Source: Stegostoma tigrinum (Eukaryota). Taken from it: a stretch of 64,000 bases of DNA. The stretch spans positions 79,090,804 through 79,154,803 of the forward strand of contig NC_081359.1 of the NCBI RefSeq assembly GCF_030684315.1, written 5' to 3'. The notes under the pieces were generated by a model, which ran no database searches, was not told the origin of the DNA, and saw nothing but the letters and a program-made list of their open reading frames with translations. The translations under genes and the position numbers were made by a program. Below are positions 2,685 to 63,800 of the stretch, in pieces. Each line of letters opens with the position of its first letter. Position 1 is the first letter of the stretch.

Positions 2685-3075
2685 CAAAGTACCATGGATC
2701 CTGGAAATCTGAAATAAAAATAATAAGTAGTGGAGAAACTCAACAGGTCTGGCAGCATCTGTGGAGAGATAAACAGAGTGAAGGTTACAAGTCCAACATG
2801 ATTCTTTTTCAGAACTGTAAGTCATATCGGATTTGAAACATGAACTCTGTTTCTCTCTTCACTGATGTTGGCAGACCTGCTGAGTTTCTCCAGAACATTC
2901 TGATTCTATTCCAAGTGAATTTTTTTTAGCATCTGCAGCATTTTGTTTTTATTTGAGTGTTTCTTCTTCAGAGCTATTCAAAAGAAGATCATATTGGATC
3001 TGAAATATTAACTCTGTTTGTCACTCCACAGATTTGCCAAACTGTTGTGTATCTCCAGAATTCTCTCTTTTTATT
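2685..3075. mobile_element. Decayed ORF-less Penelope-like hairpin element(s), family B
   Basis: Inverted arms ggagaaactcaacaggtctggcagcatctgtggagag / ctcttcactgatgttggcagacctgctgagtttctcc, a gcatctgcagc tail and a third partial arm at ~2970-3075. Same family as 55334-55558. Confidence 0.7.
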
Positions 3076-3185
3076 AACTACCTTGTAAGCACTAAACAAC
3101 TTCTCCAATGGGCATTTAAATAGCCTTTGGACTTGTTGATATATCGGAGGCCAAACAGTAAAAGCCCTGATGAATTAAGCAATCA

Positions 3186-3263
3186 GCTTGGCCTGCTGTG
3201 TTCATCCAGCTCTTCACCTTGTTATCTCAGATTCTCCAGCATCTGCAATTCCTACCATCTCTG
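3186..3263 (+). mobile_element. Penelope-like family A terminal fragment (arm end plus tail)
   Basis: gcttggcctgctgtgttcatccagc...attctccagcatctgca matches 6774-6849. Confidence 0.8.
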
Positions 3264-3959
3264 AAACAAATATTCAACTTGGACACAGCCAGATTGCAAC
3301 ATTTGTCATTACATGTATTTTGCTCTGTGATACTGATGTAAATTGTTTAAATTTCTGTCCCTTTTCTTTTCTTTGAGAGTGACATGATACAATGTGGAAA
3401 ATCAGTATGAAAGAAACAAGTTGAAAGGAAAATCTAATTTTAGATTTCAGATTGAGCAGATGTGTAGGCCATTGAACACTGGTATTAGATTTTAAATGCA
3501 AATGTAATTCAATTTCAAAAAACTGCCACCACAATATGGGAATTTTGCAAATGGCACATGAAACATTAATAGGATTTTTAAAAAGAACTATATGTTCTAT
3601 TATTGCTATTGGAGTTTTTCTAGGACTTTTCAAAATACAGTCTCTCTCGTACAGGCTAAAAATTGTAGCACTCCCTTCTGGAGGAAACATCTGAAAGATT
3701 TATAATATTTTTATCGACACCAAAAAAAATGGACAAAGGATAATTGTGATATTTTAAATAGATTGTAAAAACATGTTCATAAAAGCATAGCCAAGAACGT
3801 GCTGTTAAATATATAACACAATCTAATTTTGTTCCAATACCAGTTTCTCATGGTACTGTTAAAGGGCATGGCTGTCATAGTAATTTAAACCTTGAAAAAT
3901 ATTTGTCACCATTGTAGTTGTGATGGAATGTTTAGGATTGATTGGGTCTCAAGCACTAA

Positions 3960-4225: not shown

Positions 4226-4322
4226 TCAATTCATATGAACTCCAAAGTAAGACATGATTTTGAATTTCTGAACGGTAAAGGTCTTTATCTGGATTCAAAA
4301 TTCACCCTGAACGTAGAGAACA

Positions 4323-4418: not shown

Positions 4419-5411
4419 ACAAAAGAAATAGCATGAAGTGATTTACATACAAACGATGATGTTGTAGAAGGTTTACCTCCAAACTTTTGTTTGATTTCTG
4501 ATTAAAAGGCTTAGTTCCATTCAATTAACACATACTTCCTTTAATCCATTAGAACTTTTATCTTCAAAAGCTTACTGTTTACACTCAGGCACTGCGTGGC
4601 AGATTTTCAATTATAGCGCACAGCAGTAGTTGGAGCAGTTATACCACCCGTTCTGTAGCAACAGCAAGAGCCTTGAATCCATTTATGCTGGGGCCCCAAT
4701 GAAAATATTTATGAATGGTCCTGCTTGATTCAGTTAGTGCATAGGCCATCCATTTCAAGTACAGCTTACAAATGGATTCAAGTAGGCCAAGTGTGTCCAT
4801 TGAACAGGCAGACTTTAAATATATATTCAGCTGCCTACCTCCGTTTATTTTAACAAAAAAACCCACAATGGGAGGAATTCAAAGAATGTCTTCATTCTGA
4901 CACTTATTAGTGAGACATGAGGGGAATGTCATTTACCTGGGAATCCAGTTCTTTTGATTGCCACACAATGGTTATTACCCTAAAAAAGGTCAGTTTGGTT
5001 TTAACTATGATGCCTCCTTTAGTCAAATAGCCTCTCACCTAGGTTTACAAAATAAGAATTTGAGCAAAACAATAAAATGTGACTAAGACCAATAGAGGCA
5101 ATGTGGATCAATGCCTTCAGAAAAGATCAGATTAGGAAGGTTACTATTTCCTTCCTTGTCAAGCAGTATTAAATTTTCAGAGAGTGCATTTTAGCCGACC
5201 TATATAGAAAATATCTGATAGCCAGATTGATAAAGCATTTGTGTTTTAACTCCCTACAGCAAATGACATGATGAAATTCTGAATTTAAATATATACAATA
5301 ACTTTGATGAATTGAAAGATGACATAAAAGGACAGGAATTGTATCATGATAATAAAATGTGAGGCTGGATGAACACAGCAGGCCAAGCAGCATCTCAGGA
5401 GCACAAAAGCT

Positions 5412-5439
5412 GACATTTCGGGCCTAGACCCTTCATCAG
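5412..5439 (-). ncRNA. Minimal hammerhead ribozyme motif (one C>T in stem III)
   Basis: CTGATGA-A-GGGT CTAG GCCC-GAAA-T-GTC on the minus strand. Confidence 0.55.
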
Positions 5440-5846
5440 AGAGGGGGATGGGGAGAGGGAACTGGAATAAATAGGGAGAGAGGGGGAGGCGGACCGAAGA
5501 TGGAGAGTAAAAAAGATAGGTGGAGAGAGTGTAGGTGGGGAGGTAGGGAGGGGATAGGTCGGTCCAGGGAAGACGGACAGGTCAAGGAGGTGGGATGAGG
5601 TTAGTAGGTAGCTGGGGGTGCGGCTTGGGGTGGGAGGAAGGGATGGGTGAGAGGAAGAACCGGTTAGGGAGGCAGAGACAGGTTGGACTGGTTTTGGGAT
5701 GCAGTGGGTGGGGGGGGGGGGGGGAAGAGCTGGGCTGGTTGTGTGGTGCAGTGGGGGGAGGGGACGAACTGGGCTGGTTTAGGGATGCAGTAGGGGAAGG
5801 GGAGATTTTGAAACTGGTGAAGTCCACATTGATACCATATGGCTGC

Positions 5847-6506
5847 CCCACCACCCAAGACATTTTTCCATCCCCTCCCCTGTCTGCTTTCCGGAGAGAC
5901 CACTCTCTCCGTGACTCCCTTGTTCGCTCCACACTGCCCTCCAACCCCACCACACCCGGCACCTTCCCCTGCAACCGCAGGAAATGCTACACCTGTCCCC
6001 ACACCTCCTCCCTCACCCCCATCCCAGGCCCCAAGATGACATTCCACATTAAGCAGAGGTTCACCTGCACATCTGCCAATGTGGTATACTGCATCCACTG
6101 TACCCGGTGCGGCTTCCTCTACATTGGGGAAACCAAGCGGAGGCTTGGGGACCGCTTTGCAGAACACCTCCGCTCAGTTCGCAACAAACAACTGCACCTC
6201 CCAGTCGCAAACCATTTCCACTCCCCCTCCCATTCTCTAGATGACATGTCCATCATGGGCCTCCTGCATTGCCACAATGATGCCACCCGAAGGTTGCAGG
6301 AACAGCAACTCATATTCCGCCTGGGAACCCTGCAGCCATATGGTATCAATGTGGACTTCACCAGTTTCAAAATCTCCCTTTCCCCTACTGCATCCCTAAA
6401 CCAGCCCAGTTCGTCCCCTCCCCCCACTGTACCACACAACCAGCCCAGCTCTTCCCCCCCACCCACTGCATCCCAAAACCAGTCCAACCTGTCTCTGCCT
6501 CCCTAA
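5847..6506 (+). pseudogene. C-terminal part of the Penelope-like ORF: Zn-knuckle linker and GIY-YIG endonuclease (RT domain missing)
   Basis: CNRRKCYTC linker, then NVVYCIHCTRCGFLYIGETKRRLGDRFAEH...VANHF...EQQLIFRLGTLQPYGIN. The N-terminus of ORF 5595..6506 is read-through of the inverted arm. Confidence 0.9.
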
Positions 6507-6722
6507 CCGGTTCTTCCTCTCACCCATCCCTTCCTCCCACCCCAAGCCGCACCCCCAGCTACCTACTAACCTCATCCCACCTCCTTGACCTGTCCGTCTT
6601 CCCTGGACCGACCTATCCCCTCCCTACCTACACTCTCTCCACCTATCTTCTTTACTCTCCATCTTCGGTCCGCCTCCCCCTCTCTCCCTATTTATTCCAG
6701 TTCCCTCTCCCCATCCCCCTCT

Positions 6723-6750
6723 CTGATGAAGGGTCTAGGCCTGAAACGTC
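6723..6750 (+). ncRNA. Minimal type I hammerhead ribozyme motif
   Basis: CTGATGA-A-GGGT CTAG GCCT-GAAAC-GTC: catalytic core, stem II, palindromic ACGT stem III and GUC cleavage triplet. Stem I is only ~2 bp. Confidence 0.7.
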
Positions 6751-7524
6751 AGCTTTTGTGCTCCTGAGATGCTGCTTGGCCTGCTGTGTTCATCCAGCCT
6801 CACATTTTATTATCTTGGAATTCTCCAGCATCTGCAGTTCCCATTATCTCAGGAATTGTATCATAGCTAGTTAAATGATATCTATATCTTTAAGATCATC
6901 TGAGGTTAGAGTTTGGAATTGGGAATTGTGAAAGCTATTCACATGTGCTTGCTGCTCTTTCATTCTTCCCACTGTTTGAACAGAAAACAATGCCACAAAA
7001 GTAAAATAATAGCTTCCCCTTAAAAGACAATAATTAGATAGTGAATATTTGCAAGTTATGCACCATCAATAATCACCTGTATTTTAAATGTAGAGCGTTA
7101 TCACTGTTCCATCACTGTTCTTGATTTATTAGATTGTCTGCTTACCCTAACCCAAATGGAGTGCGCAGTCTTTCAATTTCTACTGCAGTCTGGCTGTTGT
7201 GTTGAAATAAGCTTGGATCATACAGTATGCATGATGTCCATAGTTCTTTGTTTTTCATGTCAGCAGTTATGTTGAATTAAAACCATATAAACATCAGCCA
7301 GGGAAACAAGCTTGCTTATTTTGTTTCTGAATATATTCAAGGGATGCCAATCAGCTTCTCTAAATCCGAATTCCTTATGACATCACAGACAGACACTTTT
7401 TTTCTGACTGATCCCTGGAGGAATTGAATATATTTTCCTCTTTTGGGTAAATAAGTTATTAATAATCAAGAAAAGTTGCAGTTGGTAGCTGTTGTCCTTC
7501 CATCAATTTTGAGAATCCCAATTT

Positions 7525-7830: not shown

Positions 7831-8032
7831 AAAACAATAGTGGAAAACTGGTTAATCAGAGCCAAAAAGTTTTAACTTAAATTGGTACATAATTGGGAAA
7901 ACTGACCAAAATACTCTCTAGTTTCTGTTAAGAAAGCACAGAAAAAGATGATTTAATGCTTGATTTCCTAACCCATATTGCTGGCTACCAGCATTGCCAA
8001 CATCAGCAATTATAAGATCACCACTATTAGTA

Positions 8033-11619: not shown

Positions 11620-12985
11620 GAGAGTCATACAGCACAGAATCAGACTCTTCAGTCCAACTTCTCCATGCTGACCGAGTTTCTCAAACTAAACATAAGAACA
11701 TAAGAACTAGGAGCAGGAGTAGGCCATCCGGCCCCTCGAGCCTGCCCCACCATTTAATAAGATCATGGCTGCTCTTTTTGAGACTCATCTCCATTTACCC
11801 GCCCACTCACCATAACCCTTAATTCCGTTACTGTTCAAAAATTTGTCTAGCCTTGCCTTAAACACATTCAGTGAGGTAGCTTCAACCACTTCACTGGGCA
11901 GGGAATTCCACAGATTCACAACTCTTTGGGTGAAGAAGTCCCTCCTCACCTCAGTCCTACATCTGCTTCCCCTTATTTTCAGTGATGCACCCTAGTCCTA
12001 GTTTCAGCTGCTAGCGGAAACAGCCTCCCTGCCTCCACCTTATCTATTCCCTTCATAATCCTGTATGTTTCTATAAGATCTCCCCTCGTTCTTCTGAATT
12101 CCAATGAGTATAATCCCAGTCTACTCAGTCTCTCCTCAGAATTCAACCCTTTCAACTCTGGAACCAACTGAGTGAATCTCCTCTGCACCCCCTCCAGTGC
12201 TAGTATACTCCTTCTCAAATAAGGAGACCAAACCTGCACACAGTACTCCACGTGTAGCCTCGCCAGGACCCTATACAGCTGCAGCAGAGCCTCCCTGTTT
12301 TTAAACTCCATCCCTCTAGCAATAGCAGACAAAATTCCATTTGCCTTTTTAATTACCTGTTGCACCTGCAATCCTACTTTTAGCGATTTCATGCACAAGG
12401 ACATCCAAGTCTCTCTGCATAGCAGCATGCTGCAATTTTTTACCATTTAAAACATAGTCCATTTTGCTGTCATTCCTACCAAAATGGATGACCTCACACT
12501 TATCAACATTGTATTTCATCTGCCAGACCTTTGCCCACTCACTTTGACCAGCTATATCCCTCTGCAGACTTTCAGTGCCTTCTGCACACTTTGCTCTATG
12601 ACTCACCTTAGTGTCATCTGCAAATTTTGACACATCACACTTAGTCCCCAACTCCAAATCATCTGTGTAAATTGTAAACACTTGCAGTCCCAACACTGAT
12701 CCCTGAGGCACACCACTAGCCACTGACCGCCAACCAGGAAAACACCCATTTACCCCTACTCTTTGCTTTCTACTGGTCAACCAATAAACCAATAAACAAG
12801 TCCCATTTGGTTACAAAGTGTGGGGCTGGATGAACACAGCAGGCCAAGCAGCATCTTAGGAGCACAAAGGTTACATTTGGCCCACTTCCCGCTTAACCTT
12901 TCCTAGTCATGTACCTGTCCAAATGTCTTTTAAATGTTGTAACTGTATCTGCATCGACCACTTTCTCTGGCAGTTCATTCCATAC
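11620..12985 (-). mobile_element. Older CR1 3'-end fragment interrupted by the 11691-12785 CR1 and a Penelope fragment (~12812-12868)
   Basis: agtcatacagcacagaa...ccatgctgacc resumes after the insertion as agtcccatttg...tggcagttcattccatac. Confidence 0.6.
11691..12785 (-). mobile_element. CR1 LINE, 5'-truncated (RT C-terminus plus tail)
   Basis: SGVPQGSVLG..KFADDTK..; cataagaacataagaa tail at 11691. Highly similar to 29870-30970. Confidence 0.92.
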
Positions 12986-15030: not shown

Positions 15031-15174
15031 CCTCAAATCTCCCTTCGTATCATACATGATTTCCCTTGAGATAACACGATGTGAAGCTGGATTTCCCTTG
15101 TGTTGGTACCACCCATGCTGAAGGATAGCAATATTTTCAAAGTGTCCAGTAAACACACATTTATAAGACATTTT

Positions 15175-15486: not shown

Positions 15487-15499
15487 AACATTTTCCCTA

Positions 15500-16560: not shown

Positions 16561-16564
16561 GCTT

Positions 16565-18075: not shown

Positions 18076-18079
18076 CCAC

Positions 18080-34604: not shown

Positions 34605-34712
34605 GAGCAAATTGCTGCAGATGCTGGAATCTGTACTAAAAATAAAAAGTGCTGGAAATCATAACGGGTGAGGCAGCAGTGGAGAGAAGGGAAGCTAACA
34701 TTTCGAGTCTTG
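34605..34712 (-). mobile_element. Penelope-like family B terminal fragment
   Basis: ctgcagatgctggaatctgtactaaaaa...gctggaaat...ggcagca...aacatttcgagtc. Confidence 0.65.
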
Positions 34713-39149: not shown

Positions 39150-42100
39150 TTTGTATTTTTCCAGTCATGGAAAACGAATGTCACTGACATGATCAGCACT
39201 GACTATTCATCCTGAATTGCACTTGATAGATCATTCTGGTGAACTTGCTTAGATTGTTGCAGTGTGCTGTGTATATACTAGGGAGCTATTTGAGAAGGAT
39301 TTCAAAGATTTTAACCTAGTGCGAATGAGAGAACTGTAATCTAATTCCAATTTAGGATAGTGAGTGACTTGCAGGGGAATATGCATGGACAATCCCATAC
39401 TAAGGAGTAGAGGTCACAGATTTGGAAACTTGCGATTTGCTACAATCTGACTTATTGATGATACTTTGCTGCCACTGCGCTCCTTTGTTGAATGCAGCAA
39501 TCATTTCAGATGCAAAAAGAAAGTGTTGCCTGCCCAGAGCCAAGGTTTAGGACATTTGCTCAGAGATGGCAAAAATCTTATGATGTGTATAAAGTCATTG
39601 TGGTATATGTAGGTACCAATAATGTGGACAGGACAAAGAGAGAGTCTATAGAGTTAATATGAGGAGCCATGCAACAAATTGAGAAGCAGAATCTCAAAGG
39701 CAATAATCCTGAGATTATCCAGAGCTGTATACAACTTGGCATTGGTCAAATAAGACTAGAGAAATGAATGTATCAGTAAAAGACTGGTATGGTAGAAGTG
39801 GGTTTTGGTTCAAGGGGTGATGGCACCATACTAGTTAAGTTAGGATCCGTACCATAGTATTGGTTTGCTCCAGAACCACGTGGAGGCCAGTGTTCTGACG
39901 AGTCACATGGCTAAGAAAGTAGAGAATTTTAAATGAAATAGCGGTAGCAAGGGAACAAATTTGGGAAGGTGTATCTTATCATAGAATAGAAACATGGCAA
40001 GATTGAAATGCACTACTATGGAAAATGATTAATAGACTGTAAGAGAAGTGATAGCACATAAATTAAAGAGCAGACCAACAGGTAATGATAGAGGTTACAA
40101 AAATAATAAAAGGAAAAAACTAAAGGTTCTGTACATGAATGTACGTAACATTTGAAACAGATGAATTAATTGTACAAATAGAAAAGATATAATCCGACAG
40201 CTATTAGGCAGACATGGTTGCAGGATGATACAAGATTAGGTCCTGAATATTGAAAAGATACATGACATTTAGGAAGGTTTGGAAGTGAGGAAAACATACA
40301 GAAATGACTGTATTAATTAAATTATTGTATTAGTACAATATTGTGGGATGAGTCAAGTTCAGGAAACCAGAATGTGTAATGATTGGGGTAGAGATGTGAA
40401 ACAACAAAGGCAAGAAGTCACTTGTGGAAGGGATTTACAGGCCCTCCAGCAGTAATTACACGGTAGAATGGGGTACAAAAAAAGAATAATGGGATCTTTA
40501 TTTCAAAGGGAATGGAATGTATAAACAAGGAAATCAAACCATACCAGGCACTGTACAGACCACAGTTGGAAACCTGTGAACAGTTTTGGGCCCGTTATCT
40601 AAGGTATTGGACGAAGTTCAGCAAAGGTTTATTAGGCTGATATTGGGTATGCAGGGTACTGTCTTATGAGGAGGAGTAGGGTAGGGCCTGTGCTCATTGG
40701 AGTTTAGAAGAATGAGAGGTGGCTTTATTGAACCATACCAGATTTTTAGAGCACTTGACAATGTAGATGCTGGGAGAGTGTTAACCCTTGCGGCAGAGTC
40801 TAGGACTGGACAACCTAATCCAAGAGTAAAGGATTACCCATTTAAGACAGATTTGAGGAGGCACTCAGAGGGTAGTGATCCTGTGGAATTCTTTACTGCA
40901 GAGGACTGTAGAAGTTGGGTTGTTAGATATAATTAGGGCTGAGGCAGACAGATTTTTAATCAGTAAGAGAGTCAAGGGTTATGGGGAAAAAGCAAGAAAG
41001 TGGAGTTAAGGATTACAAATTCAGCAAATTTATCATTGAATGGTGGAATAGATTCAATGGGCCAAATGGCCCACATTTGCTCTTACATCTTATGGTAAAT
41101 GAATGGTAATAATCATGATGGGCTATATTCAACACATGAACTGGAAGCATCAGATGGGCAAAAGGAATCTAGATGAGAAATTCATAGAAAGTTTTCAGGA
41201 TACTTTCTGAACACACCACTTTGTATAGTAAACCAGAGAGCAGGCATTGTGATGTCTGGTAGTATTCGACGAGAGAGGTTTAATTCATTATCCCGTTAGG
41301 AAAGCACCCCTAGGTAGTAGCATAATGTGATTGAAATCTGCATTAAATCTGAGGGAGAGAGGGTGGGTCTAAGACTAGTGTTTTAAACAAATTAGGGTAA
41401 TTATGAGGAGATGAAAACAGAGATAGCTAAAATGAAGTGGCAAATTAGGGTAAGGCGTGGTCAACAGAGATGCAGTGCCAGTATAAATGGAGTATTATGT
41501 GGAAAAGGTGAAATTTTCCATTTTGGTAAAAAAGAATTTAAAAAGTGCATTTAATCCGAATGGTGGGAGACTTCAGAGCTCAAACATGAAGAGGGATCTG
41601 AGTGTTCTTATGCACGAATCACAAAAGGTCAGGATACAGATACACCAAGTAATTAGGAAAGCCAACAGAATGCTATTATTGGTTGCAAGCGGAGTTGAAT
41701 ACAGAAGTATGGGAATTATGCTTCAGCTATACAGGGCATTGGTGATACTGAGATAAGAGTGCTGTGTATGGTATTAGTCAGCTTATTTAACTGTTGGAAA
41801 CAGTTTAGAAAAGTTTACCAGTCTACCTTTCCAAGGAAGGGTCACCGGACCTGAAATATTAAGTCTGATTTTTCTTCACAGATGCTGCCAGACCTGCTGG
41901 GCTTTTCCAATAACTTCTGTTTTTGTTTTTTTTAAAACCAGTCTAATACTTGGTAAATATACATGAAATAGGTAGGTTATTTGATGAGGAAAAGTTAGAA
42001 TGAAGGAGTTTGTATCCTTTGGACTTTAGAAATGTAAGCAGCAACCTGACTGAAACATATCAAATCCTTAAAGGTCTCGACAGGGCAGATGTAGAGAGGA

Positions 42101-43226: not shown

Positions 43227-43332
43227 GCTGCAGGTTTTTCCAGAGCACAAAAAATGCAAATTGCTACATGCAGGGGTACATAACACGAAACGTTTTTCCT
43301 GCGGAGTATTTCAAAATGTTCTGCATGTCAAT
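43227..43332 (+). repeat. Source of the 106-bp segment duplicated at 44322-44427
   Basis: Ungapped match, 9 mismatches by my count. Confidence 0.93.
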
Positions 43333-44242
43333 ATGAGCCGGAAGGAAAAAGAGAAAATGTGAATTTCACATTTGAATTAGGCAATTTGTGATGATTTGCA
43401 CACAAACTAATTGCTAAAACGAAAACAAAATTAGAAAAATATTTCCTGAACCATGTTTTATACACAATTAACCAGAAAATCTATTTGTGATGTCGACTAT
43501 TCGTTATGCAGCTTTTCATTTCAGTAATAAATGTATGAATAATTCTTCCCTAATTTTTTAAAGCAAAAATATGTACTTTCTTGACATTTCATCAAGTAGA
43601 AGGTAATTAATGACACCTTAATAACTTCCCTAAAATGCGTCCAGTGTTGGACTTTGTTTACCTAAGGATCATTACAAAATAATGTGCTCAATGCCAAGTA
43701 CAAGGTAGATTTTCAGCGATTGGTTAGGTATTTATTCTAAAGCAAGGACTATGAAGCACAATTTAAAATTCCTAAACATTTACATATATTCTGATTGTGT
43801 GCCTGGAAATTGAACTCAGTTTTAAAAGTTTACACTTAATGTAATAAGTTTCCTATTGAATAGGATAAGAATAAAGCATTTCTAGTTTACACTAAATAAT
43901 AATAGTATGATGATGTGTCTTTAAGATGGATTTGTCTGTCCTGGCTCTCTTGAAGAGAGGCATTGAGAATCTGATGCCAAGGTGTATGCTCAGTGGAAAG
44001 CAGAGTAAATAGCTTTAACGTTTTTGAAAAGTAGACAAAAAAAGTATGAATGGGTGGAGTTGGGCTCACACAAAGCCAGGTTTTATGTTTTGCTTTTAAC
44101 TGTAGAAGTTGGCGTTTTGGATTTGAATCTGCTAGTTACAGCTCTATCTCTATTGCTGCAAAAGCTTGTGATCTCTCTCTGCTGCCAGATTCTTTCTGTC
44201 GGTGTTTCTTCCCCTGGACTGAAGAAGGCAGCAAGTGAGGGA

Positions 44243-44556
44243 TAACAAGGTGTAGAACTGGATGAACACAGCAGGCCAAGCAACATCAGGGGAGCAGGAA
44301 GGCTGACGTTTCGGGCCTAGGGCTGCAGATTTTTCCAGAGCACAAAAAATGCAATTTGCTACACACAAGGGTACATAACATGAAACGTTTTTCCTGTGGA
44401 GTGTTTCATAATGTTCTGCATGTCAATTTCAGAAGGGTCTAGGCCCAGAACGTTAGCCTTCCTGCTCCTCTGATGCTGCTTGGCCTGCTCTGCTCATCCA
44501 GCTCTACACCTTGTAATCTCAGATTCTCCAGCATCTGCAGTTCCTGCTATCTCTAA
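44243..44556 (+). mobile_element. ORF-less Penelope-like family A hairpin element with captured host DNA (44322-44427)
   Basis: Inverted arms ~44241-44320 and 44428-44518, tail to 44556; target duplication agcaagtgaggga at 44230-44242 and 44557-44569. Confidence 0.9.
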
Positions 44557-45207
44557 AGCAAGTGAGGGAAATCTGATTTACTTGTTTTGCCTTTGCCAAG
44601 GTTTATGCCATGCTGATTTATTGGAGCAGTTGTTGAGTAATAGTTAAATAATTCTTAAATATTTCAATAGAGTTAAACATATGCCAATTCTTTTTTTGTT
44701 TGTATTTTATCTCTTGTGGAAGAAATAAAGTGTTTTGTTTAAAGCCTAATAATTTGACAAATCAAATCACATCTGGAAATCAGTGCCTTACACTTTCCTC
44801 TAAATGAGAGAATGTAAGGATCTAGGCTATCTCCTTGAGGTTTTGAGGAGATTGGTCTGGTTCATAACAACAGAGATGTGCAAACATTGATCTTTCTTTC
44901 TCTTCATTTAAGTGCATCAAAAGTTATTTTATATATGTTGGTTAAGTTTTTTTTTAAAGCTGTGGAGAATTGTCTCTGTGTAAAATTTGTAAAAGTGAAA
45001 TTAAAGGGATTGCAATATCTTTTCAGTTTCATGGCGCTCTGCCAATCTAAATTATTCAATCATACTTTGATCTTTAAGTACAACGTCTTTCAACATTTCC
45101 TGGTAATTCTGATGGGCAAAAGAGACATCCAAAAACAAAGGCTGAATTATCAACTAGACTGTTTCTTTCAATGCTTTTGAAGTATATATCCTGCTCAAGA
45201 AACTTAC

Positions 45208-48519: not shown

Positions 48520-49450
48520 GCATGCTATCAGAATGGACAGACAAATAGCAAATGAAATGTAACACAGAGAAGTGTGAGATTATGTATTTTGGCATAAGGG
48601 ATAGGGAGAGGCAATATATACTTAATTACATAGCTCCAAAGAGTGTGCATGATGGGCACGGGGGGTTTGTGGGCATTGACCTTTGAAGGATACATTGACT
48701 GATTGAGTAGCAAAGGACTTTAGATCTCAGGCTTCATATATAGACCCTTTAAATTAAAAAGCAGGGAAGTTTCACCTAATTCTTTTAAATCTGTTATTAG
48801 GCCACAACTACAGTGTTGCATTAAATTCTTGTCAACAATTTTAGAATGGTTGAGAAGATGCTTAGCAATTTGCAGAGATTTTCCAGAACGAGGAATACTA
48901 ACTACAAAGTTAAATTGGAGAAGCTAGGACTGTTCTCCTTGACACAAAGGAGATTGGGGAGATTTGACAGAGATGTATAAGATTATTACAGATTTGTACA
49001 AAAGCAAATAAAGAAGAAATGTTTCCATTATTTAATGGTACAGGCTAAGGGGACATTAATTCAAGGAAAAATTAAACAGAGAATTGCAGATGCTGGAAAT
49101 CTGCAATAGAAACAGAAATTACTGGAGAAACGCAGCAGGTCTAAGCATCTGTGGAGAAAAAGCAAGCTTAATGTTTCAGGTCCAGTGACTCTTCTTCAGA
49201 ATTGGATTCAAAGTTTTGGGAAAGATATGCAGGGAAATGTGAAGAAGAATTTTTTCATGCAGACAACAATAATGATTTTGAATTTTTTATCCATAGAATT
49301 GCTAGAAGCAGAGAAAATTGGATAGACACTTGGAAAGAAATTTTTCAGACTGCAGTGATAGAGCAGGGGAATGAGACTGACTGGAATCCTCCAATGAAGA
49401 GCTGAGAGAGATTTGGCTGGCAGAATGCCTCTTTCTGGGCTATATATTAC
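48520..49450 (+). mobile_element. Decayed CR1 RT/3' fragment with a Penelope family B arm inserted at ~49070-49203
   Basis: agcaaatgaaatgtaacacagagaagtgtgag and ggagaagctaggactgttctcctt remnants. The insert reads CTGAAGA-A-GAGTC ACTG GACCT-GAAAC on the minus strand (49169-49199). Confidence 0.7.
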
Positions 49451-50140: not shown

Positions 50141-50387
50141 CACCAGAAAGCCTATTTATATAAATGTGCACTTCTTTACAGATGCCTGCTAGTACAATGT
50201 GAAAGTTAGCCACAAGGGATATAGTTACTCTTTGAAAAGAAAGCTATACAGTGTTCAGCAATCACACATAGGCAAACATTTATCTAAAGTGATAATACGA
50301 ACTGCAGATGCTGGAGAATCCAAGATAATGAAATGTGAGGCTGGATGAACACAGCAGGCCCAGCAGCATCTCAGGAGCACAAAAGCT

Positions 50388-50415
50388 GACGTTTCGGGCC
50401 TAGACCCTTCATCAG
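50388..50415 (-). ncRNA. Intact minimal hammerhead ribozyme motif, in sense within FLT1 intron 4
   Basis: CTGATGA-A-GGGT CTAG GCCC-GAAAC-GTC. Confidence 0.7.
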
Positions 50416-50824
50416 AGAGGGGGATGGGGTGAGGGTTCTGGAATAAATAGGGAGAGAGGGGGAGGCGGACCGAAGATGGAGAGAAAAGAAGATAGGTGGA
50501 GAGGAGAGTATAGGTGGGGAGGTAGGGAGGGGATAGGTCAGTCCAGGGAAGACGGACAGGTCAAGGAGGTGGGATGAGGTTAGTAGGTAAGAGATGGAGG
50601 TGCGGCTTGGGGTGGGAGGAGGGGATGGGTGAGAGGAAGAACAGGTTAGGGAGGCAGGGACAGGTTGGACTGGTTTTGGGATGCAGTAGGGGAAGGGGAG
50701 ATTTGGAAGCTGGTGAAGTCCACATTGATACCATTGGGCTGCAGGGTTTTTCTTTTCTCTCCATCTTCAGTCCGCCTCCCCCTCTCTCCCTATTTATTCC
50801 AGAACCCTCACCCCATCCCCCTCT

Positions 50825-50852
50825 CTGATGAAGGATCTAGGCCCGAAACGTC
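50825..50852 (+). ncRNA. Minimal hammerhead ribozyme motif (one stem II mismatch)
   Basis: CTGATGA-A-GGAT CTAG GCCC-GAAAC-GTC. Confidence 0.6.
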
Positions 50853-52249
50853 AGCTTTTGTGCTCCTGAGATGCTGCTGGGCCTGCTGTGTTCATCCAGC
50901 CTCACATTTCATTTATCTAAAGTGAACTTCTGTGTGATCCTTTTCCCTGATGTCTTCAATCTTAGGTTGTACCTCATAAAACAACTTACAAGATGTTTAT
51001 TTTATGGGAGGTTTATTTATTATGCTGCAATTTTTTAGGCATATTAATGTACAATAATATTTTGAGGAAGAATTAGCAAAAAAATACAAAATTATCATTT
51101 TGTTGTTTATGGCCTGTTTCAAATGCACTAGAATTGCAACTTTGTTTCCTGTGAGATTGTTGTTTTTGATTGTTTGTAATAGAGCCAGTCTAATTCTACA
51201 AGTGAATAAAAAATTGCTGAACTTCTTTAAGTAGCACAAATAAGCCTTTTGATTAATTTGAATTATTTCAAGCCATTTCTTTTGAATCTACTTGTCCTAT
51301 CTGAGCTTTCAGTTATCCAACATTTGCATCTAAAATATTATGTCTCGCATGATTCAATGTTATCCAATCTTATATACGTCTTCGTTTTTCTCTTCCACGT
51401 ATCATACAACTATTTTCCTTATCCAGCTAAATTTTTAGTACAAGTGGATTTACCCTAATAAAGGCAGAAAAATTGATAAATCATACAGTCAATTCATTTT
51501 CTCAAGAGTATTGAAACAGGTATTTCTCTGTAATATTCCCTGAATATAACGTGAAATTTAGATCGTTTGTAAACTTTGTTTACTGAAACGTAAGCTGTGC
51601 TCTATGTGGCTAAGATGATCTTGACTTTGCTCCAGATTTCATTCCAGTTGACAGGAATCAAAGCTTAAGCTGGCAACTTGGAACTTTACATATTCTGCTT
51701 CTTTAAGTCAACACATAATGTATTAAAATATTCTCGTGTTCTTTAACATGATTGATGACACATAAAAAGCCTGCCTAAAATTCTAAGTTAATAATTTTAA
51801 CAGTGAGTGCAATAGAAGTTTTATTTTAAATAACCAATATTTAAATGAAAGCTTTTTTAAGCTCCATGGCAAAATTCATAAAAGAACTTTCTTCTTTGCA
51901 CAATAAGCATTAAATGCTTTGTTAATTAATTCTAAAACGAACCAGTCTCTCACATGAATCAGACTAAAGGGAAGATACTTTTTCAAGAACACTTGCTTGG
52001 CCTCATTTATCATATTTAATTTGTGCGATAAGCAGCTATAGGATCTGAGCCTTTATTGATCACACTCATTCAGCACACCATACCTTCTCCCACAAAACTA
52101 GATGCACTACCATTAAAAAAAATGCTCCCCTGAGGATTTTTGATGACTTGATCAGACACTTCTACGTGGACAGCTATACTACAGTAAATAGCAGGAGCTG
52201 GCATGAAAGAAAGTCAAAGAAAATTTTACGTCATGGAGAATTCCACCTT

Positions 52250-54500: not shown

Positions 54501-55333
54501 CTGAAACAAAATCAACATTTTTATTCAGCTGAAACTTAAGGAAATGGTTTTGCAATGCAGAAAATTGCTAGCCCAAAGACAGACTCGTTAAGAGTTCACT
54601 TATGTTTACATGGAAGCATATATAACCTGAAGTAACAGAATTGCACAGGCATTTTTCCAAAGATCTATTAGAATAAAAGCCGAAGTTTGCTTCAGTGTCA
54701 ATTTTTTCACTAAAAATGGCACTTGTCTTTAAAACAATCCACACCTGCAACATATTCATTTTGTAGATAAATAGTATGAGTGAAGAACATCATTAAAGTA
54801 GTTTTTCAGGCATACCATTTATAGCAAATTCTCACAGGCTTTACTCTTGCCATGTTTGTGAATCTCATTGACAACGACACCTTTTTCATTGCCAGTTTCA
54901 ATAATTCACTGTTACTGAAAATATCCACTAGGTATCACATTTGACCTGTACAGTAGCTACAATTAGAACATTTGACAGGAAAGAAAATGCTACAGTACAT
55001 TCATTGGTATAATGGGGCGTATACATGAAACTATTTTGATGAACTATTTGTTTCTTTGTAACAGGAGTAATCGTATAATTGCTTTGCCCAACATAACTGG
55101 GTACTACTGGAGAATTATTAGGTTGTTAAATGTGCACAAAAACATAAGTAGTCCTATGATATGGTTGTTCTGGCATGGATGGTCTGAAATGTAGCACCCA
55201 ATATATGCCTTGTATCTTTGAATACAGTGATTCTACAATTATAGCTCATAGCAATGTGAAAATATTAGCTCTTAATTGTATTGTTGGGTCCAAATTGTTG
55301 CCAATCAAGAAAAACAAGCTCTGTACAACAGTA

Positions 55334-55558
55334 ACAAAGACAGAAGTTTCTGAAAAAGCTCAGCAGGTCTGGCAGCATCTGTGAAGAAAAATCAAGAGTA
55401 AACGTTTTGGGTCCAGTGACCCGTTCTGCGGAATAGTCACTGGGCCCAAAATGTTAACTCTGATTTTTCTTCACAGATGCTGCCAGACGTGTTGAATTTC
55501 TCCTGAAATTGTTGTTTTTGTTTCTGATTTACAGTATCTGCAGCTCTTTTGGTTTTTA
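55334..55558 (+). mobile_element. ORF-less Penelope-like family B hairpin element (~225 bp)
   Basis: Arms tctggcagcatctgtgaagaaaaatca...ttttgggtccagtgac / gtcactgggcccaaaa...tgatttttcttcacagatgctgccaga plus tail. Diverged 15-bp target duplication ctctgtacaacagta (55319) / ctttgtgcaacagta (55559). Confidence 0.85.
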
Positions 55559-57094
55559 CTTTGTGCAACAGTACATGATAACTTGTGCAGACATTTGCTC
55601 ATTGTCATATATATATTGGTTAAAGTTTAAGAATCACCTGTAAGCTCTCAGCCAAACACTCAGGACCTCTGCTGTGTTACTCTGTTCCCTTCCACCTTCA
55701 GAAACCACTTTCAAATGTTTTTGCTTTGTACAGCTTTTTCCACTTTATGCCTTACCTAGAGAAGAGTGTCCATTTGCACTCAAAGTCTTGGAAAATTGTC
55801 CAAAAAGTTTCTTTGTGATAACCTCTCTAAGAATAGAAGCTGTTAGAAAATTGTTTCATACAGCAGCTTTACATGCAAGTTATAAACTCATGTAAAGCTA
55901 AAATCACTCTTCAGCAAGGCAAAGAACTCCAGTTAATTGGACATTGGTTGATTTTATAATTCTCAAAAAAACTAGGATCACATCATACCACAATTATGGC
56001 AATTTAAGCTACGGGATGCCAATACTGTTCAAAGCTACAGGTCTGTCTAATCTTGCTTTCTATGGAATATGCTGTTCATGTTCTCATCAGACAGTTCCCA
56101 AATTTGTCTGACAGATTTTCTCACAACTTTTTAGTGTACTTTGAGTAAGGCATTTCCATTGATGTGATCCCACACAAAGAAGAAAGTCAAAAGGAAAAAG
56201 ATGCCCTGAGAACCTCTTAATTAGATGAAGGGCTGGAGTTTTCCTTTTGTTTGAGGAATGTTGTATTCTTGAAATATTTTTTAACATGTTGTTTTGTGAC
56301 ATAATACACACCCTCAAATGACTTTAACCAGGGAGTAAAAATAATTGCTCCCTTGTGGACTATTCAGAAATGGTATGGGATGAAGAAAAGAGCTACTTCC
56401 ATGCATAAAGATTATTGCCATGTGGCTTCCTGAAACTCACCATGCCATTGTGGAGATCATGAGAAATATTAGGAAGAGTTGCTGGATATTGCTGCATGCA
56501 GACATTGTGTCACCAGCAACTGAAGCTATGGGACTGCTACTTACATTAAATTCAAAGCCATTAGTGCTGACAACTGGAACAGGAATAGATAGCCATATGC
56601 TGCCATTAATTCAGTGCACACAGTAAACTAGTCAAAGTATGCAAATTAATGTGAAACTGAAAATATCTAATGCAGGTATATGTCATTCTTAATTTTGTGT
56701 AATTCATAAACTCACTATTAATGGTGTACTGAAATGGAAGAGGTTATTTTGTTTTAATTCATGTTGAGGCTGGTTTAAATTCAAATAACTTGCAACCTTG
56801 TGAGGTAGGCATGAGCAACTGTCCAGCTTTTTACCCTGTGGATTATGGATCTCAAATAAGGAAGCAATGGAGTCATTGTAATTGTCTTCAATATTTCTGA
56901 ACTATGGCAAAATCAGCGTGGTCTGTTAGAAATACATATGCGGAACAATAAGTGAAGGTAGGGCTGGGTTTTACTGTACTGTTTCCTGTGGCTAAAATTA
57001 TTAACACAATACTACTTGTTGCATTGCTCTGGGAAAATTCCTGTGTCCCCAAAGATAGTAATTCAAATAAGTCACAACAACTTGCATTTTCCAG

Positions 57095-57410: not shown

Positions 57411-60207
57411 ATTGGTCATTACTTTAATTACCAAAACAGCTTTGTTTAAAACAAAATAAACAGTCCCCAGTTACTGAAAATTTTTAATCAGTCAATAGTT
57501 GATACTTGAAGACTCTGAAAATCCTGGATCTAATTATCAGTCTGCAGTAAATTAATTGATTTCCACCAAGGTGCTTATTAGGGTATTACAACTGACTTGG
57601 TGTCATGGAGGTAAGGAGAGGAATATTGGTAAAGATTTCAGCTTATTGTCACATTCCAGCAGACTGCATGGAGGTGCAAATATATGGACATACAGTGATG
57701 GTAGGATCAGGAATAGCTGAAGTGTTTGCTACAATCAATGGGATACCATCATTCAGCAGCAAGATTCATACGTTTGTAGTAGACAATTGAACACATGTGG
57801 AACCATAGTCCAGCAAAGATCATTCAGGAAAGATTTGGAATAAAGGACAGAATATCATTTTCTTTTTATTTAAAAATGAAAACCCTATGCTGGTCCTGTA
57901 GGCAATTTAGATCAGATTCAGTATGAAGGAGGAAATGTGTTAACCACATTGAAAATATGGTTTCACCTAATCAACAATGTAGTTGAAACAAAGTCCAGCA
58001 TTGATTAAATATAAATAAACATTAAAGTGATTGCAAATTATACAGAAGCACAGAATTTTTCATTACTTTAATACTAGTAAGTGCATAATACTACAATAAA
58101 AACTTCACATGCTGATAAGAACACCAATTTTTAAAGGCATGCATGACACTTTCTCAATAAACTGAAGGCACCTTTGGTGTGGTTTATGTACTTCCAAACA
58201 ACGCAAACTCAGAATTTGCACTTTAAATCTGGGAAAACAGCAGATCAGTGACCCTCATGGAGCTAATTTGGGAAGTTGAATAAACAATGTCCTGCCACAG
58301 GAAACAATAGAGAACTACTACTGAATCTAATTCTACTTGCTTCACTTTCCCAAGCACTATTAAAAACCCTGGAGGGATTATTTTTAATTGAAATCAACAT
58401 TGAATGCATTGCTATTTATCAAGCCTAAGATCTGCTGGTTACACTGTAATATTCATCAATTAGGTGTCTCATAAGACCCTTGTCAGAAATAGTCAAGTGT
58501 ATTTTCTTTTCATTTTTCACTTTCAGGATAAGGAGTCACCAGTCACAAACTGATGTGTCCTTGTAAAGGATATGGTAATCTTCTTTTTGATCCTATAAGT
58601 GCCTTTGCATGAGTGTACCCCCACCAGAAACCCTCAAGCAATCCTAACTGGATTTGCTATTCACACTTCCTGAATGCCTGGAAAATGTAGTGCTCCTCCC
58701 CAATGGTGGGGGACCAACTGATCCAACAGTAGGGGCTACACTGTATTCCCATCTCAGCCCCAATTTAGTCCAGAATAGGAAAGCTAATGGAAAACATTCC
58801 TACATGATTTCTAATTAAGGCCTATTTAAATGCCTCATCCCATTGCTAATAGCCCTCCCAACAAGCTAAGTGTTGAAATTTTCAGTAAGGCTGTCACATT
58901 TTCGTAACTGCCTGACTTCAAACTGGCTGTACGGTGGTGTGGATCATAGACTTGAGGCTGGAAGAGTTTAGGAGACAAGTAAGTATAATTTTAAAAATTT
59001 ACATGGCTTATTTGCTTGTATTTAAAAGTTCATGGCACTACATTTTACCAGGCATTCAAGAAGTGTGAATAGCAAATCTGGTTGGTATTGCTTGTTCATG
59101 GCTCACTGGAAGAGCATCAAGAAATTGTAAAATTAGAGGGTCCTCTGTAGCATCTCACAAGTGGCTCACCCAAGAAACATTTTTGCTCATAGATGCTGTG
59201 CAAATCAAAATTGTGACAAATGTGCTTACAGGATTGGAAGACACCCATAAACAGATCAAGAAGAAAAGGGCACAGCTTTAAATTTTTTGCAAAAGAAAGG
59301 AATGTGAGGTGATTAAAAAAAATCTTTCAGATAGCAAATAATTAATGTTTGGATTGCACTGCATGGAGGTATCATGCAGGCAGTTTCAATTGAGGCATTC
59401 AAGAGAGCATTAGATAATTGCACATTATTTAAATAAAACAAAAGGTACAAGAAAAAGCCAGGAGATTGGCACAATTTTGTGATTCTGTGAATTCAACAGG
59501 GTCACAAATGATCAGGCATCACAGCACAGAGGGAGCAGAGTTCAGTACCAAGACAAATCAGGTGGTGCCCGGCATACCCCTTCAGCCCAAGAGAGATGAT
59601 CATGAAGATAGCAATTCCATTGCTGCCAATAAGGTGGTTGGTCCTGGCACACTCCAGAGGAGGACCACCTTCCTTTCTCTCCTACTGCAGGACCTCCAGT
59701 TCCCCTGTGCCATCTGGGCTCCGAGTAGCGCAGTGGTAAGCACTGGTAGAAACCCTACCCCTTAGGCCAAGTAGCAGCCACTGTGATAATCTATATGAGT
59801 GATGGCATTCCCATGACAGTTAATTGGCTGGGAAACCCACATCCATGTGAATTAAGGGCTCGGTCCTGGTAAAATCTCAGAAGTAGGTAACATTTCTGGT
59901 GGACATGTTTCTAGGCCCCCTAAAAAAGTCTATCTCCTGTTCCCTGCCTGAAGTGACAAATCTTTCCCAATTGCCTCAATGTTCTTCTGTTGATTTTTAT
60001 GATTGCATTTACCCACTGCATAGCTCCACTTGTCAGGTGTTATTCAAAATTTGGTGTAATTCTGACCTGCTTCCTTGTTTCTCCTAGTGACTGTTTAAAC
60101 ATTTTATTTCTAACAGAATAAATATACATTGAATGTAAAGTATTCTAAACTTAACAGAAACAAAAGAGACCTTCATAAGACAAAAACAACTACAATGTTG
60201 GTCTTAC

Positions 60208-60425
60208 CCTTAACAAATATATAGAGCGCAGTCTTTCTTTGTCGGGCATTTGAAGATGAGCTATTGCAGTAATAGTATCCTGTGTCTTTAGCCTGCGTTT
60301 TGCTTAAAGTCAGGTTACTCCAGAAAGGTCTATTGCTGACCCCACTGTTAAAATTAATTATACTCAGTCTTTCAGTTCCATTAATTACATGATTTGGCCA
60401 GGACCATGATACATGTGATGATCCC
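60208..60425 (-). CDS. FLT1: FLT1 exon 3 equivalent (Ig domain 1), 218 bp
   Basis: ttttcacag|G...GTTAAGG|gtaaga. Translates GSSHVSWSWPNHVINGTERLSIINFNSGVSNRPFWSNLTLSKTQAKDTGYYYCNSSSSNARQRKTALYIFVK, with the Ig DTGxYxC motif. Absent from the ORF track. Confidence 0.92.
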
Positions 60426-60864
60426 CTGTGAAAATAAAAAGGTAAAACATTGCAGAATCCAGTTCATCTTTTTCACTGAAGTAAAATCAGATTACTTAGA
60501 AATATCATCGGTACGTTAAGCTTCAATGTTACCACTTTATTGGCTTGTGCCATCTTAAAGAAAAAGAGTGCAAGTGGTGAAATAAAACCAGAGAATGTTT
60601 AAAATAAACATTAGGTTAGTCAACAACTGTAAACAGAAAATGCTAATCTGAAAACCTCTTAGCTTCTTTTAATCCCCTGCTACCAATGAAAGGAAGTTTG
60701 GGAAGTCACAATAACAGCATCGTGGTACTCGCTGAGCTGGAATTTGCAGATCCTACTGCAGTGGAAAAGTTAGCAAGTGGGCCTGGAGATTTGCATAGGA
60801 GGGCAGGAAGCAGGCCCATGGCAGCGGGAAAACTGTAAACAATTATGGGAAACTATTGACAAAT

Positions 60865-63800
60865 TGGTAATGTCGCAAGACTAGTCATCCAGAGCCCCAA
60901 GCTAATGTTCTATAAATTCAATTGAAGTCAATTTTTTAAAAATTGGAATTGTAAGCTAGTTTAATGGTGATTGTCAATTATCATAAAATCCATCTGGTTC
61001 ACTAATGTCTTTCAAGGAAAGAAATCTGCTGGCCTTGATCGTTGGTCTATACTCAACTCCAGACCCACAGCAACGAAGCTGACTCTTAAGTACCTCTGAA
61101 ATGGCCTCACAAACTACTATAAAATCTGTAGAAAGGAAACAACTAGATAGACCAAGTGGCATCAACCTAGACACCATCAATGGAAGCATCAAAACTGCAA
61201 ACTTCTCAACAACATCTGAAATCTGTGCCAAAATTGAGAAAGCTGTACCTCAGATTAGACAGGCACCAGAGGTATATAGTCACACTCATGGAATCATACC
61301 TAATAGCCAATATTCTAGATGCTACCATGACCATCCTTGGATTTGTCCTGTTCTACTGCCAGTACAGGCCGACCAGAGGTGGTGGCATAGCTGTACACAG
61401 TTAGGAATGAGTTGCATGGGAGTCCTCAACATGGAGCTTGGACTCCATGAAGTCTCATGGCATTAGATCAAACCTGGGCCAAGAAGCCTTCTGTTCATTA
61501 CCACTTATTGCCCCACCTTGGCTGATGAATCATCACTCCTGTAAGTTGAACAACACTTGGAGGGAACATTGAAGGTTTCTTTGGGTGGGTGACTTCAATG
61601 TCCACCACAACATGTGGTTCAGTAACACCACTCCTGACCAAGGTAGTCAAGTCTTCAAGGACAAAACAGCTAGACTGAGATGTGACAGGTGGTGAGGGAA
61701 CCAACAAAAAGGAAAAATCTACTTAACCTCATCCTTAGCAATCTATCTGTAGCTAACCCTAAACCTAACCTTCATCTTTCCATAGCAGTATTTGTAGAAC
61801 TGATCACCGTACAGTCCTTGCGGAGGCAAAGTTCTATCTTCACATTGGAGATACTCTCCATTGTGTTTTGTAACATGACTGTGCTAAACGGGACAAGCTT
61901 CAAAAGATCAAGCAAGTAAAAACTGGCATCCAAGAAATGCTGTGGGCTATCAATAGTAGCAGAATTTCAAATCACAACCACAAACTGGAATTTCATGTTC
62001 CTAAGAGATGCAGCGTGGAGCTGGAGGATCACAGCAGGTGAGAGGAGCAGGAAAGTCGACTTTTCGGGTAAGGATTGAGGAGGGGAAAGGGAAGCTCAGA
62101 AATAAATAGAGGGGCAGGATGGAGCTGAGGAAAGGTAGGTGGAGTGGTGTTAAGTGGATGCAGGTAGGGGTTTGTGGAGATTGGTCAATGGGATGGGTGG
62201 GGTGGATAGGTGAGAAGGATGATGGACATCTTGTTTTAGATCAAGGAAGCGGGGATGAGAGGGAGGGCTGCACATACGATGAGGCTGAGGGTAGGGGGAG
62301 TTTGAAGCTAGTGAATTCTATGTTGAGTCCATTGGGTTGTAAGCTCCCAAGGCAGAATATAAGGCGTTGTTCCTCCAATTTTCATGTGTCCTCATTGTGA
62401 CATTGGAGGAGGCCCGGGTTGGTCATGTCACCAAGGGAGTGGGAAGAGGGGTTAAAATGGTTGGCAACCAGAAGATGATGTTGATTGGAGCATACAGAGC
62501 ACAGATGCTCCATAAATCTGTCATCGAAACTGTGCTTGATCTCTCAGATGTAGAGGGACCATAACTTCCCCTCTCCTGTGATTTATAATGCCCTCAATTG
62601 CATCTCGTGCATTTCCTACACTTCTGCCCTCAAATCCCCTCCCCCACTAACAACAATAAGGGTAGAGTTTCCTGATCCTTACCTAACACCCCACCAACTT
62701 CTGAATTCAATGCATCATCCTCCGCCACCTGCAGTCATACCCCACCACCAAACAGATATTCCCGTCTCCGCCCCATCTACTTTCCATAGGGATCTGTCTC
62801 TCCATGACTCTCGTCTGCTTCACACTCCCCACCAATCCCACCACACGTGGCACCTTTCCCTGCAACCACAAGAAGTGCTAGCCCTGCCCCTACATCTCCC
62901 TCCTCATCTCCATCCAAGGCTCCAAACAATCATTCTATATCTAACGGGGATTCACCTCCCCATCCCCAGCCTCATCCCATTTCCAACCTGGTATACTGCC
63001 TCTGTTGTTCCTGATGTGGTCTCCTCGACACCAGAGTGCCCAAGCACAGACTTGATAACAAATTCGCGGAACATCTGCACTCTGTACACTCCAGCCTTCC
63101 TGTTGCCAGCCATTTCAACTCCGCTTCCCACTCCCTTGGCGACATGTCTCTCCTGGGCCTCCCCCAAAGTCACAATAATGCCACATGAAAATTGGAGGAA
63201 CAACACCTTATATTTCACGTTGGAAGCTTAGAGCCCAATGGCCTCAATGTAGAATTCACTGGCTTCAAAATCTCCTTATGCCCAGCTTCATCCCATGCCC
63301 AGCCCTCCTTCTCATCCTCACCTCCTTGATCTGACACAACCTGCCCATCATCCTTCTCACCTGTCCACCCCACCCTTCCCATTGACCAATCTCAACAAAA
63401 CCCTACCTGCATCCACCTAACACCACTCCACCTACCTTTGCTCAGCTCCATCTTCCCACTTTATTTATTTCTGAGCTCCCTTTTCCTCTCCCCAGTACTG
63501 ACCTGAAAAGTCAACTTTCCTGCTCCTTTGATTCTGCCTGACCTGCTGTGTTCCTCATTTCATGTTCCTACTTGCTCACTATGTCCAGTTTGGCTTCAGC
63601 CATGGTTGCTAAGCTCTTGAAGTCACTACAGCAATAGTCCAAACATGAACAATAAAGATAATGTTGTAAGGCAAAGATAAAGATAATGTGGTAGTGAGAC
63701 TCCCTAGTATAACTGTAATCAATGGGAGTCTGGGACAAAGCACTCTGTTTGTTTGAATCATATCAAGCACAAAGGATGATGGTTGTGGTTGTCAGCAGTT

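Follow-up and report, generated by a model that had tools for sequence, protein, structure and literature searches.

Why should a shark genome carry hairpins of only about 230 bp that hold a hammerhead ribozyme motif and no open reading frame (ORF), side by side with larger palindromes of the same build? This question is raised by a 64,000-nucleotide stretch of Stegostoma tigrinum (assembly GCF_030684315.1, NC_081359.1, positions 79,090,804 to 79,154,803 of the forward strand), hereafter the window. A sequence-only reading had proposed that its palindromes, despite resembling miniature inverted-repeat transposable elements (MITEs), are retro-products of Penelope elements whose minimal mobile unit is ribozyme plus tail, possibly a non-autonomous retrozyme-like system. 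We favor, with a probability of about 0.7, the explanation that they are 3' ends of Penelope-like elements (PLEs) joined head to head, whose two recurrent stops would lie at the 5' ends of the copied RNAs. The analysis used a random sample of 1.38 Mb (the window plus 132 scattered 10-kb stretches of the same genome), with 281 family A and 190 family B/C arms in slightly overlapping sets, and genome-wide counts of arms, junction bases and hairpins obtained with exact sequence patterns over the 3.2 Gb assembly (perfect-hairpin patterns of 26-30 nt, CpG decay being tolerated where relevant). C-type arms were pooled with family B, as a separate family C motif gave only 3 copies. Positions within arms are numbered from hammerhead C3 = 0, which places the predicted cut after +27 and the tail end at about +126.

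Pieces of the window and their parent element

Self-BLAST, an inverted-repeat search, an arm search and direct reading of the sequence recovered all the pieces listed before, namely six head-to-head palindromes and five single arms, together with one additional arm:

5335..6864: young family A head-to-head palindrome of 1.5 kb (palindrome 5345-6850; left arm 5345-5846 tailless, right arm 5847-6850 tailed), 14-bp target duplication (5335/6851)
5847..6350, + strand: fragment of a GIY-YIG endonuclease, with CX4CxxC linker, within this palindrome's loop (PF01541, E=2.9e-4, under the curated cut-off)
6689..6695, + strand: TATA-like box TATTTAT with a putative promoter function, 30 nt above the inferred transcription start at 6719
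6723..6750, + strand: minimal hammerhead of type I, with core C3 at 6723 and a cut predicted after 6750
5412-5439, - strand: mirror hammerhead of the same element (sequence, descriptor)
6816..6850, + strand: unpaired tail of about 35 nt (sequence)
50277..50925: family A palindrome (50288-50918; left arm long and tailed, right arm 169 nt and tailless), target duplication of up to 16 bp (50277/50910, overlapping the element end)
50415 (- strand) and 50825 (+ strand): hammerheads of this element, which was listed before at 50293
44231..44569: older family A hairpin (palindrome 44241-44554), two short arms around a 107-nt filler (44321-44427), 13-bp target duplication (44231/44557)
43227..43332, + strand: likely template of this filler, local DNA 1.1 kb upstream
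61990..63570: old family A-like palindrome of 1.55 kb (62004-63556) with decayed reverse transcriptase (RT)-thumb and endonuclease remnants, core shortened in both arms, 14-bp target duplication (61990/63557)
55321..55560: family B hairpin whose fold lies between about +8 and -3 of the core, tail at right, 15-bp target duplication (2 mismatches) around 55334
2692..2938: family B/C hairpin with its fold between -5 and +6 of the core
2989..3060 (approximate), + strand: single family B/C arm, absent from the earlier list (arm search)
3186..3262, + strand: single older family A arm, beginning downstream of the hammerhead, tailed (self-BLAST, arm search)
12811..12873, - strand: single family A arm, tailless (self-BLAST, arm search)
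34605..34712, - strand: single family B/C arm, tailed, ending within stem II, with a target duplication of about 10 bp (sequence, arm search)
41829..41930, + strand: single family B arm, tailless, starting 2 nt above the core, 9-bp target duplication around 41826 (sequence)
49070..49210, - strand: single family B/C arm, tailed, with a readable core at 49199 (sequence)

Seven pieces, where six had been counted before, are thus flanked by target duplications of 9-16 bp read off the sequence; none could be clearly read in the window sequence at 2685, 3186, 12812 and 49070. The unpaired tail is on one side only in most palindromes, as described earlier, but the 2685 element seems to be tailed on both arms. 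The 62004 element, formerly counted among the ribozyme-bearing pieces, has no intact hammerhead: about 12 nt are gone from the core/stem II region in both its arms, and this shared damage suggests that an intact ribozyme may be unneeded for insertion. The filler of the 44243 element is 91.5% like window positions 43227-43332, its only match within the fetched DNA, and points to a possible capture of a local template during insertion.

The palindromes grade into a much larger element. A GIY-YIG probe from the loop of the 5348 element gave 150 scored genome matches, all 100% identical, with open frames of up to 1,093 aa, and an N-terminal probe of the parent gave 150 more at 95-100%. The parent ORF contains an RT (PF00078, E=6e-5 in the 935-aa frame of L146, under the curated cut-off) with DKG and YIDD motifs, followed by a CX4CxxC linker and, at the C terminus, by a GIY-YIG domain that has a CxxC placed between its GIY and YIG positions; partial tandems, running from the 3' end through the tail into the 5' untranslated region, make up 11 of 30 near-full-length loci. 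As a CX2-5CxxC linker marks the Neptune and Nematis PLEs (PMC8557442), this motif would place the parent with the Neptune/Nematis type. Family B likewise belongs to the PLEs, with endonuclease remnants (39-59% identity) upstream of 6 of its 10 long arms. Head-to-head elements of 3-5 kb (G000 C1, L147-L163) have arms 99-100% alike, which indicates that the family was active very recently; the young family A core occurs as 71,315 exact 30-mers genome-wide. Arm density is about 340 per Mb in the sample, which amounts to roughly a million arms in the genome if the sample is typical. The pieces of the window are, on this sequence evidence, 3' ends of endonuclease-bearing (EN+) PLEs with an abundant, young autonomous parent encoding RT and GIY-YIG domains.

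Their anatomy is already known for PLE insertions (PMC8557442, PMC3846280). The EN+ Neptune and Nematis elements described there share the single ORF with RT and C-terminal GIY-YIG domains, the CX2-5CxxC linker and the partial tandems, and EN+ PLEs also share the inverted 5'-truncated copy at the 5' end, the one-sided tail of 30-40 bp, the target duplications and the palindromes at the inverted junction. Nothing here differs in kind from these elements; the copy number in this genome, however, permits the stops to be counted base by base.

Palindrome anatomy, the hammerhead and two stops

The sample holds 67 family A pairs of 113-3,930 bp, 50 of them no longer than 300 bp, and the size series is continuous up to 5.2 kb, at which size the RT and endonuclease lie inside. 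Exactly one tail of about 35 nt is present in 51 of the 53 family A pairs with clear ends (14 further pairs could not be scored) and in 23 of 27 clear family B/C pairs, the search for the latter having admitted short gaps only. Target duplications of 13-16 bp flank 40 of 55 young pairs, and 4 have none that could be found. The variable length of these duplications and the one-sided tail bear out the earlier view that the palindromes are retro-products of PLEs and not MITEs. The further proposal of a self-copying, non-autonomous retrozyme-like family fared otherwise: all 67 family A junctions in the sample differ from one another, identical perfect junctions are shared by three or four subfamily haplotypes, no head-to-tail tandem neighbors were found among the 281 family A arms (3 neighbors are tail to tail), and an autonomous parent is abundant. 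Hence, the hairpins have very probably been built anew by a PLE at each landing site.

The two arms of a pair are not independent of each other. When a gap of less than 200 nt between arms is required, their lengths correlate (21 short-short, 13 long-long and 1 mixed among 35 pairs; Fisher p=9e-9). In perfect hairpins both arms carry the same subfamily haplotype in all scorable cases (13/13 and 8/8, from 20 and 15 examined), and one tail is present in 18/20. The tailed arm is the longer one in 15 of the 51 one-tail pairs, the tailless arm in 17, and in 19 they are equal, so that in about a third of the cases the pair cannot have arisen by simple copying of the tailed arm. From the one-sided tail, the pairing of arm lengths and the haplotypes we infer two complementary DNAs (cDNAs) started at two nicks and start sites, a scheme that fits an anole element (PMC11167929); that both cDNAs derive from one RNA appears likely. 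Two observations weigh against the single RNA: shared haplotypes could also stem from gene conversion, and in long pairs the arms are mutually closest in only 3 of 16 cases (with 6 ties), though under the median in 15 of 16.

A sequence-agnostic descriptor of the minimal hammerhead type gives 74 hits in the 1.38 Mb sample, as against 0, 0 and 0 in three Markov copies of it, whereas an Rfam scan of the window returned no hammerhead family match and only a sub-threshold match to a microRNA precursor, involving the hairpin at 2727-2896 (E=2e-5, far under the family threshold). The stem II sequences read from the window recur: GGGT-CTAG-GCCC of family A in 50 of the 74 hits, and GGGTC-ACT(G/A)-GACCC of family B as the column majority of 188 family B/C arms. 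Helix I comprises 2 bp (pairing in 74/74 and 69/74 hits at its first two positions), and further positions, which pair in only 10-17 of 74, give no support for a longer helix. Between lineages the stems do covary. The 2.2-1.2 pair is C-G in young A, T-G in old A and mostly T-A in B, and 2.1-1.1 is A-T in a third family; within B/C the 10.2-11.2 pair covaries (GC 102, AT 22, GT 18, AC 12; p=4e-8, with p=0.41 and 0.18 for non-partner columns), but this is probably a single inherited change, and independent events are few. The minimal type I PLE hammerheads (PMC4209133) share the extra nucleotide between A9 and 10.1, the G10.1-C11.1 pair, the palindromic 15.2-16.2, the lack of loop 3, and the occurrence both as pairs 100-700 bp apart on opposite strands and as many solo copies; the 2-bp helix I, a point of difference, is as in Drosophila virilis. 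The third hammerhead family, with a 6-bp stem II (L009, L025, L035, L042, L050, L060, L062, L067, L128, L130, L186, L195), keeps its upstream sequence in 15 of 20 copies and has no TATA-like box at -34; it may thus not share the first of the two stops described below.

Arm starts depart strongly from uniformity and gather at the hammerhead, as the smallest pieces of the window had led the sequence-only reading to expect. Among 130 arms with identity of at least 88%, 36 start within the 11 nt from -8 to +2, as against 2 in the 31 nt upstream (-39 to -9), while 43 start higher up and 49 lower down. In the whole genome, C precedes -4 of the young core in 63,872 copies, G in 5,035 and A or T in 2,408; at the control position -12, A and G together number 383, about half of them G (~175). 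Of 30 inspected loci, 26 are true junctions and 21 have the G, with varied partners and fillers and some single arms; only 9 of the first 100 listed G arms lie within perfect hairpins, which at -4 number 888 loci. Upstream of this stop is a TATA-like box, whose first T is at -34 in 55 of 86 long young A arms (the position at which the box at 6689 lies), at -35 in 17 of 37 old A arms (the long A sets include some hairpins), and at -32 to -34 in 8 of 10 long family B arms, so that the box is 30-31 nt from -4 in both A subfamilies and 28-30 nt in B. The base at -4 is the A of CCATTT in old A, the A of TCAGTT in B, and a C within a pyrimidine run in young A. We take this spacing and these motifs to fit a TATA-initiator promoter of RNA polymerase II. 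In family B, just 10 of 148 core-reaching arms retain upstream sequence, and the foreign base before -4 is G in 46, A in 35 and T in 19 of the first 100 of 160 matches (p=2e-5); G is the commonest, where pure fold-back predicts T. In L1, an extra G is the sign of a capped full-length insertion (PMC11702581), and its presence before -4 together with the TATA spacing suggests a capped transcription start; we consider it fairly probable that the -4 stop is such a start. A splice acceptor behind this stop was also considered and dropped, there being no AG before -4 in long copies.

Several observations weigh against this interpretation. Older A copies display no excess of G at -5 (C 1,392, G 132, A/T 385), and in young A the extra G is also expected as a fold-back remnant, 15 of the 21 G junctions having an A before the G. 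None of the 11 tandem 5' ends is at -4, the nearest being at -11 and +17 and three extending past -299, which means that other or longer templates must exist. Finally, the Penelope promoter of D. virilis is internal and TATA-less, though within the pseudo-long terminal repeat (PMC2377424); TATA and initiator-like motifs have been described in such a repeat of a rotifer element (PMC3846280).

The second stop is at +28. Perfect hairpins centered on AGCT, the four bases with which the predicted 3' cleavage product begins, occur at 682 loci, in contrast to those at the other 4-nt palindromes (CTAG 123, ACGT 47, GGCC 21). Transversion-type flanks number 3,252 at +28, about 850 at +29, about 840 at +30 and 986 at +31, two of the four counts being estimated by hand from the first 100 matches, and with perfect hairpins removed +28 is still about twice as high as the neighboring positions. 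We give about even odds that this class reflects ribozyme cleavage. On the opposite side, no such peak shows up in the random sample, where 3 of 130 arms start at +27..+29; old A has a weak one (25 vs 11), and family B, whose cut end is unable to self-anneal, has none (1 vs 20). About 42 of the first 100 matches listed for +28 are perfect hairpins, and AGC recurs in partner arms, so that microhomology may inflate +28 in a count that spans +28 to +31. The predicted fold of the monomer is an inactive rod that ends at +29. PMC4209133 gives no in vivo evidence of PLE hammerhead cleavage.

A proposed mechanism and its rivals

Taken together, we propose that the endonuclease might nick both target strands about 14-15 bp apart, with each nick priming reverse transcription at one of two start sites; as these would be 35 nt apart, only one arm would receive the tail. 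The two cDNA 3' ends would then be joined via short complementarity or repair filler, the arm length having been fixed by the copying stop, with long arms stopping at scattered places. The arms of ~130 nt would be run-off copies to the 5' end of an RNA begun 4 nt above the core, under a TATA-initiator promoter within the element's own 3' end, and the extra G would have been copied from the cap. Run-off on RNA cut by the ribozyme would account for a second, smaller class, the arms of ~100 nt; short copies, which lack the TATA box, would be dead ends. The unit formerly described as ribozyme plus tail would, in these terms, be better read as extending from the RNA 5' end to the tail, and the ribozyme, often cut through or missing in the arms, as a passenger. 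Two of the targeted insertions contain an isolated tandem restart, with the second unit starting exactly at +28 in L287 and at G plus -4 in L170; this is as expected if the enzyme jumped templates at an RNA 5' end.

The same PLE origin could be kept while denying that any start or cut is recorded: the RT would pause at two places, the edge of a C-run (-4) and the foot of a stable RNA hairpin (C0 to G29), and self-complementary ends would then decide the junctions. A C-run indeed lies just above -4 in both A subfamilies, the predicted rod of the monomer (-9.5 kcal/mol) has its base at +29, the G before -4 is possibly a palindromic remnant, and full-length tandems run past -4. Yet family B, without the C-run, stops at the same place and has G, not T, before -4; the spacing of the TATA-like box is kept while the surrounding sequence differs between A and B; and the counts at +29 and +30 are not raised. 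We therefore regard pausing as unlikely, though deserving of attention. Less likely again is that a single cDNA folds back and self-primes (or that an antisense template does so), with the endonuclease trimming the copy to leave a one-sided tail. Self-priming has been proposed for rotifer Penelopes (PMC3846280), and it would account for the shared haplotypes of the arms and the many perfect palindromic centers (888 and 682 loci); but these centers have no loop, the longer tailless arms exceed their partners sometimes by hundreds of bases, and the junction fillers include local genomic DNA.

A further rival is a non-autonomous, retrozyme-like family: the ~230-bp hairpins would be transcribed, would cleave themselves and would be copied as one unit. 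This appears very improbable and is largely refuted for family A. In its favor, 50 of the 67 pairs in family A and each of the 30 found in family B/C are hairpins of 113-300 bp, an identical junction is shared by hundreds of hairpins, and PLE ends of other vertebrates have given rise to non-LTR (long terminal repeat) retrozymes (bioRxiv 10.64898/2026.07.22.740005). On the other side, besides the 67 distinct junctions, the exact junctions recurring on several haplotypes and the lack of tandem units, both outer ends are at the parent's two start sites, the +28 hairpins have no ribozyme core, and the short copies have no TATA-like box. The known non-LTR retrozymes (PMC7229834; bioRxiv 10.64898/2026.07.22.740005) are similarly short, ORF-less, hammerhead-bearing and PLE-related, but form head-to-tail tandem units, whereas the present copies are single, head to head and with unique junctions. 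MITEs moved by a DNA transposase would match the short inverted-repeat shape and the high copy number, but can hardly be reconciled with 13-16 bp target duplications of unrelated sequence, asymmetric ends and a continuous size series reaching elements with RT and endonuclease; we give them next to no credence.

The preferred reading, i.e., head-to-head joining of two cDNAs, has a close counterpart in the Anolis Poseidon element PAc as studied in vitro (PMC11167929), which shares two internal RT start sites bounding the tail, cutting and extension of both strands, a predicted dimer, and an insertion that does not need the ribozyme. The PAc study saw no RNA reads starting or ending at the cleavage site and left cDNA 3' stops unmapped; in the shark element, moreover, the first in-frame ATG of the ORF comes after the tail, and the linker carries an extra zinc finger. 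Twin priming of L1 (PMC11702581) is comparable in its two primed cDNAs joined by microhomology, its target duplications of 12-18 bp and the extra G at the capped 5' end. However, the second primer of L1 lands inside the RNA, and the inverted parts barely overlap, whereas here both cDNAs would start at the 3' end and so yield a palindrome.

Neighboring repeats and significance

The remainder of the window contains other repeats. Broken copies of a long interspersed nuclear element with endonuclease- and RT-like frames, 77-92% alike, are found at 8032-11014, 11690-12810 and 27973-30970, and are presumably CR1-like. Dispersed repeats of ~310 bp, 69-82% alike (15162-15475, 16245-16553, 18079-18436, 33803-34103 and 36208-36333), form a family that presumably resembles short interspersed nuclear elements. 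The segment 22841-23733 holds a helix-turn-helix-like frame (23304-23633, - strand) flanked by 32-nt inverted repeats and is a possible Tc1-like remnant; two inverted-repeat pairs, 58635-59094 (60 nt, 90%) and 2124-2219/4323-4418 (96 nt, 91%), are unrelated to the PLE arms.

What appears to be new beyond the published work that we found is the pair of sharp stops together with the promoter geometry; no earlier report of the breakpoint pattern was found in a literature search that had subscription journals, Repbase reports and supplements outside its scope. PMC8557442, PMC4209133 and PMC11167929 treat as open both the way in which PLEs form their inverted copies and the question of hammerhead cleavage in vivo. 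Here, the tens of thousands of nearly identical copies of a young family offer two exact coordinates, a putative start at -4 and a putative cut at +28, and argue for two cDNAs copied from one RNA. A very large number of short hairpins in this genome would be PLE stubs, open to confusion with MITEs or microRNA precursors, and hairpins like that at 2727-2896 could be misannotated as microRNAs. It is conceivable, at somewhat short of an even chance, that the genome preserves a base-resolution fossil record of the Penelope cycle, in which a TATA-initiator promoter shared by several PLE lineages would start capped RNAs at -4, the ribozyme would cut in the germ line and a dimeric enzyme would build each palindrome by copying one RNA twice, from two start sites; the ~130-nt arm would then be a strong-stop-like cDNA with hundreds of thousands of insertions, and the full-length tandems would get beyond this position by using a longer or circular template.

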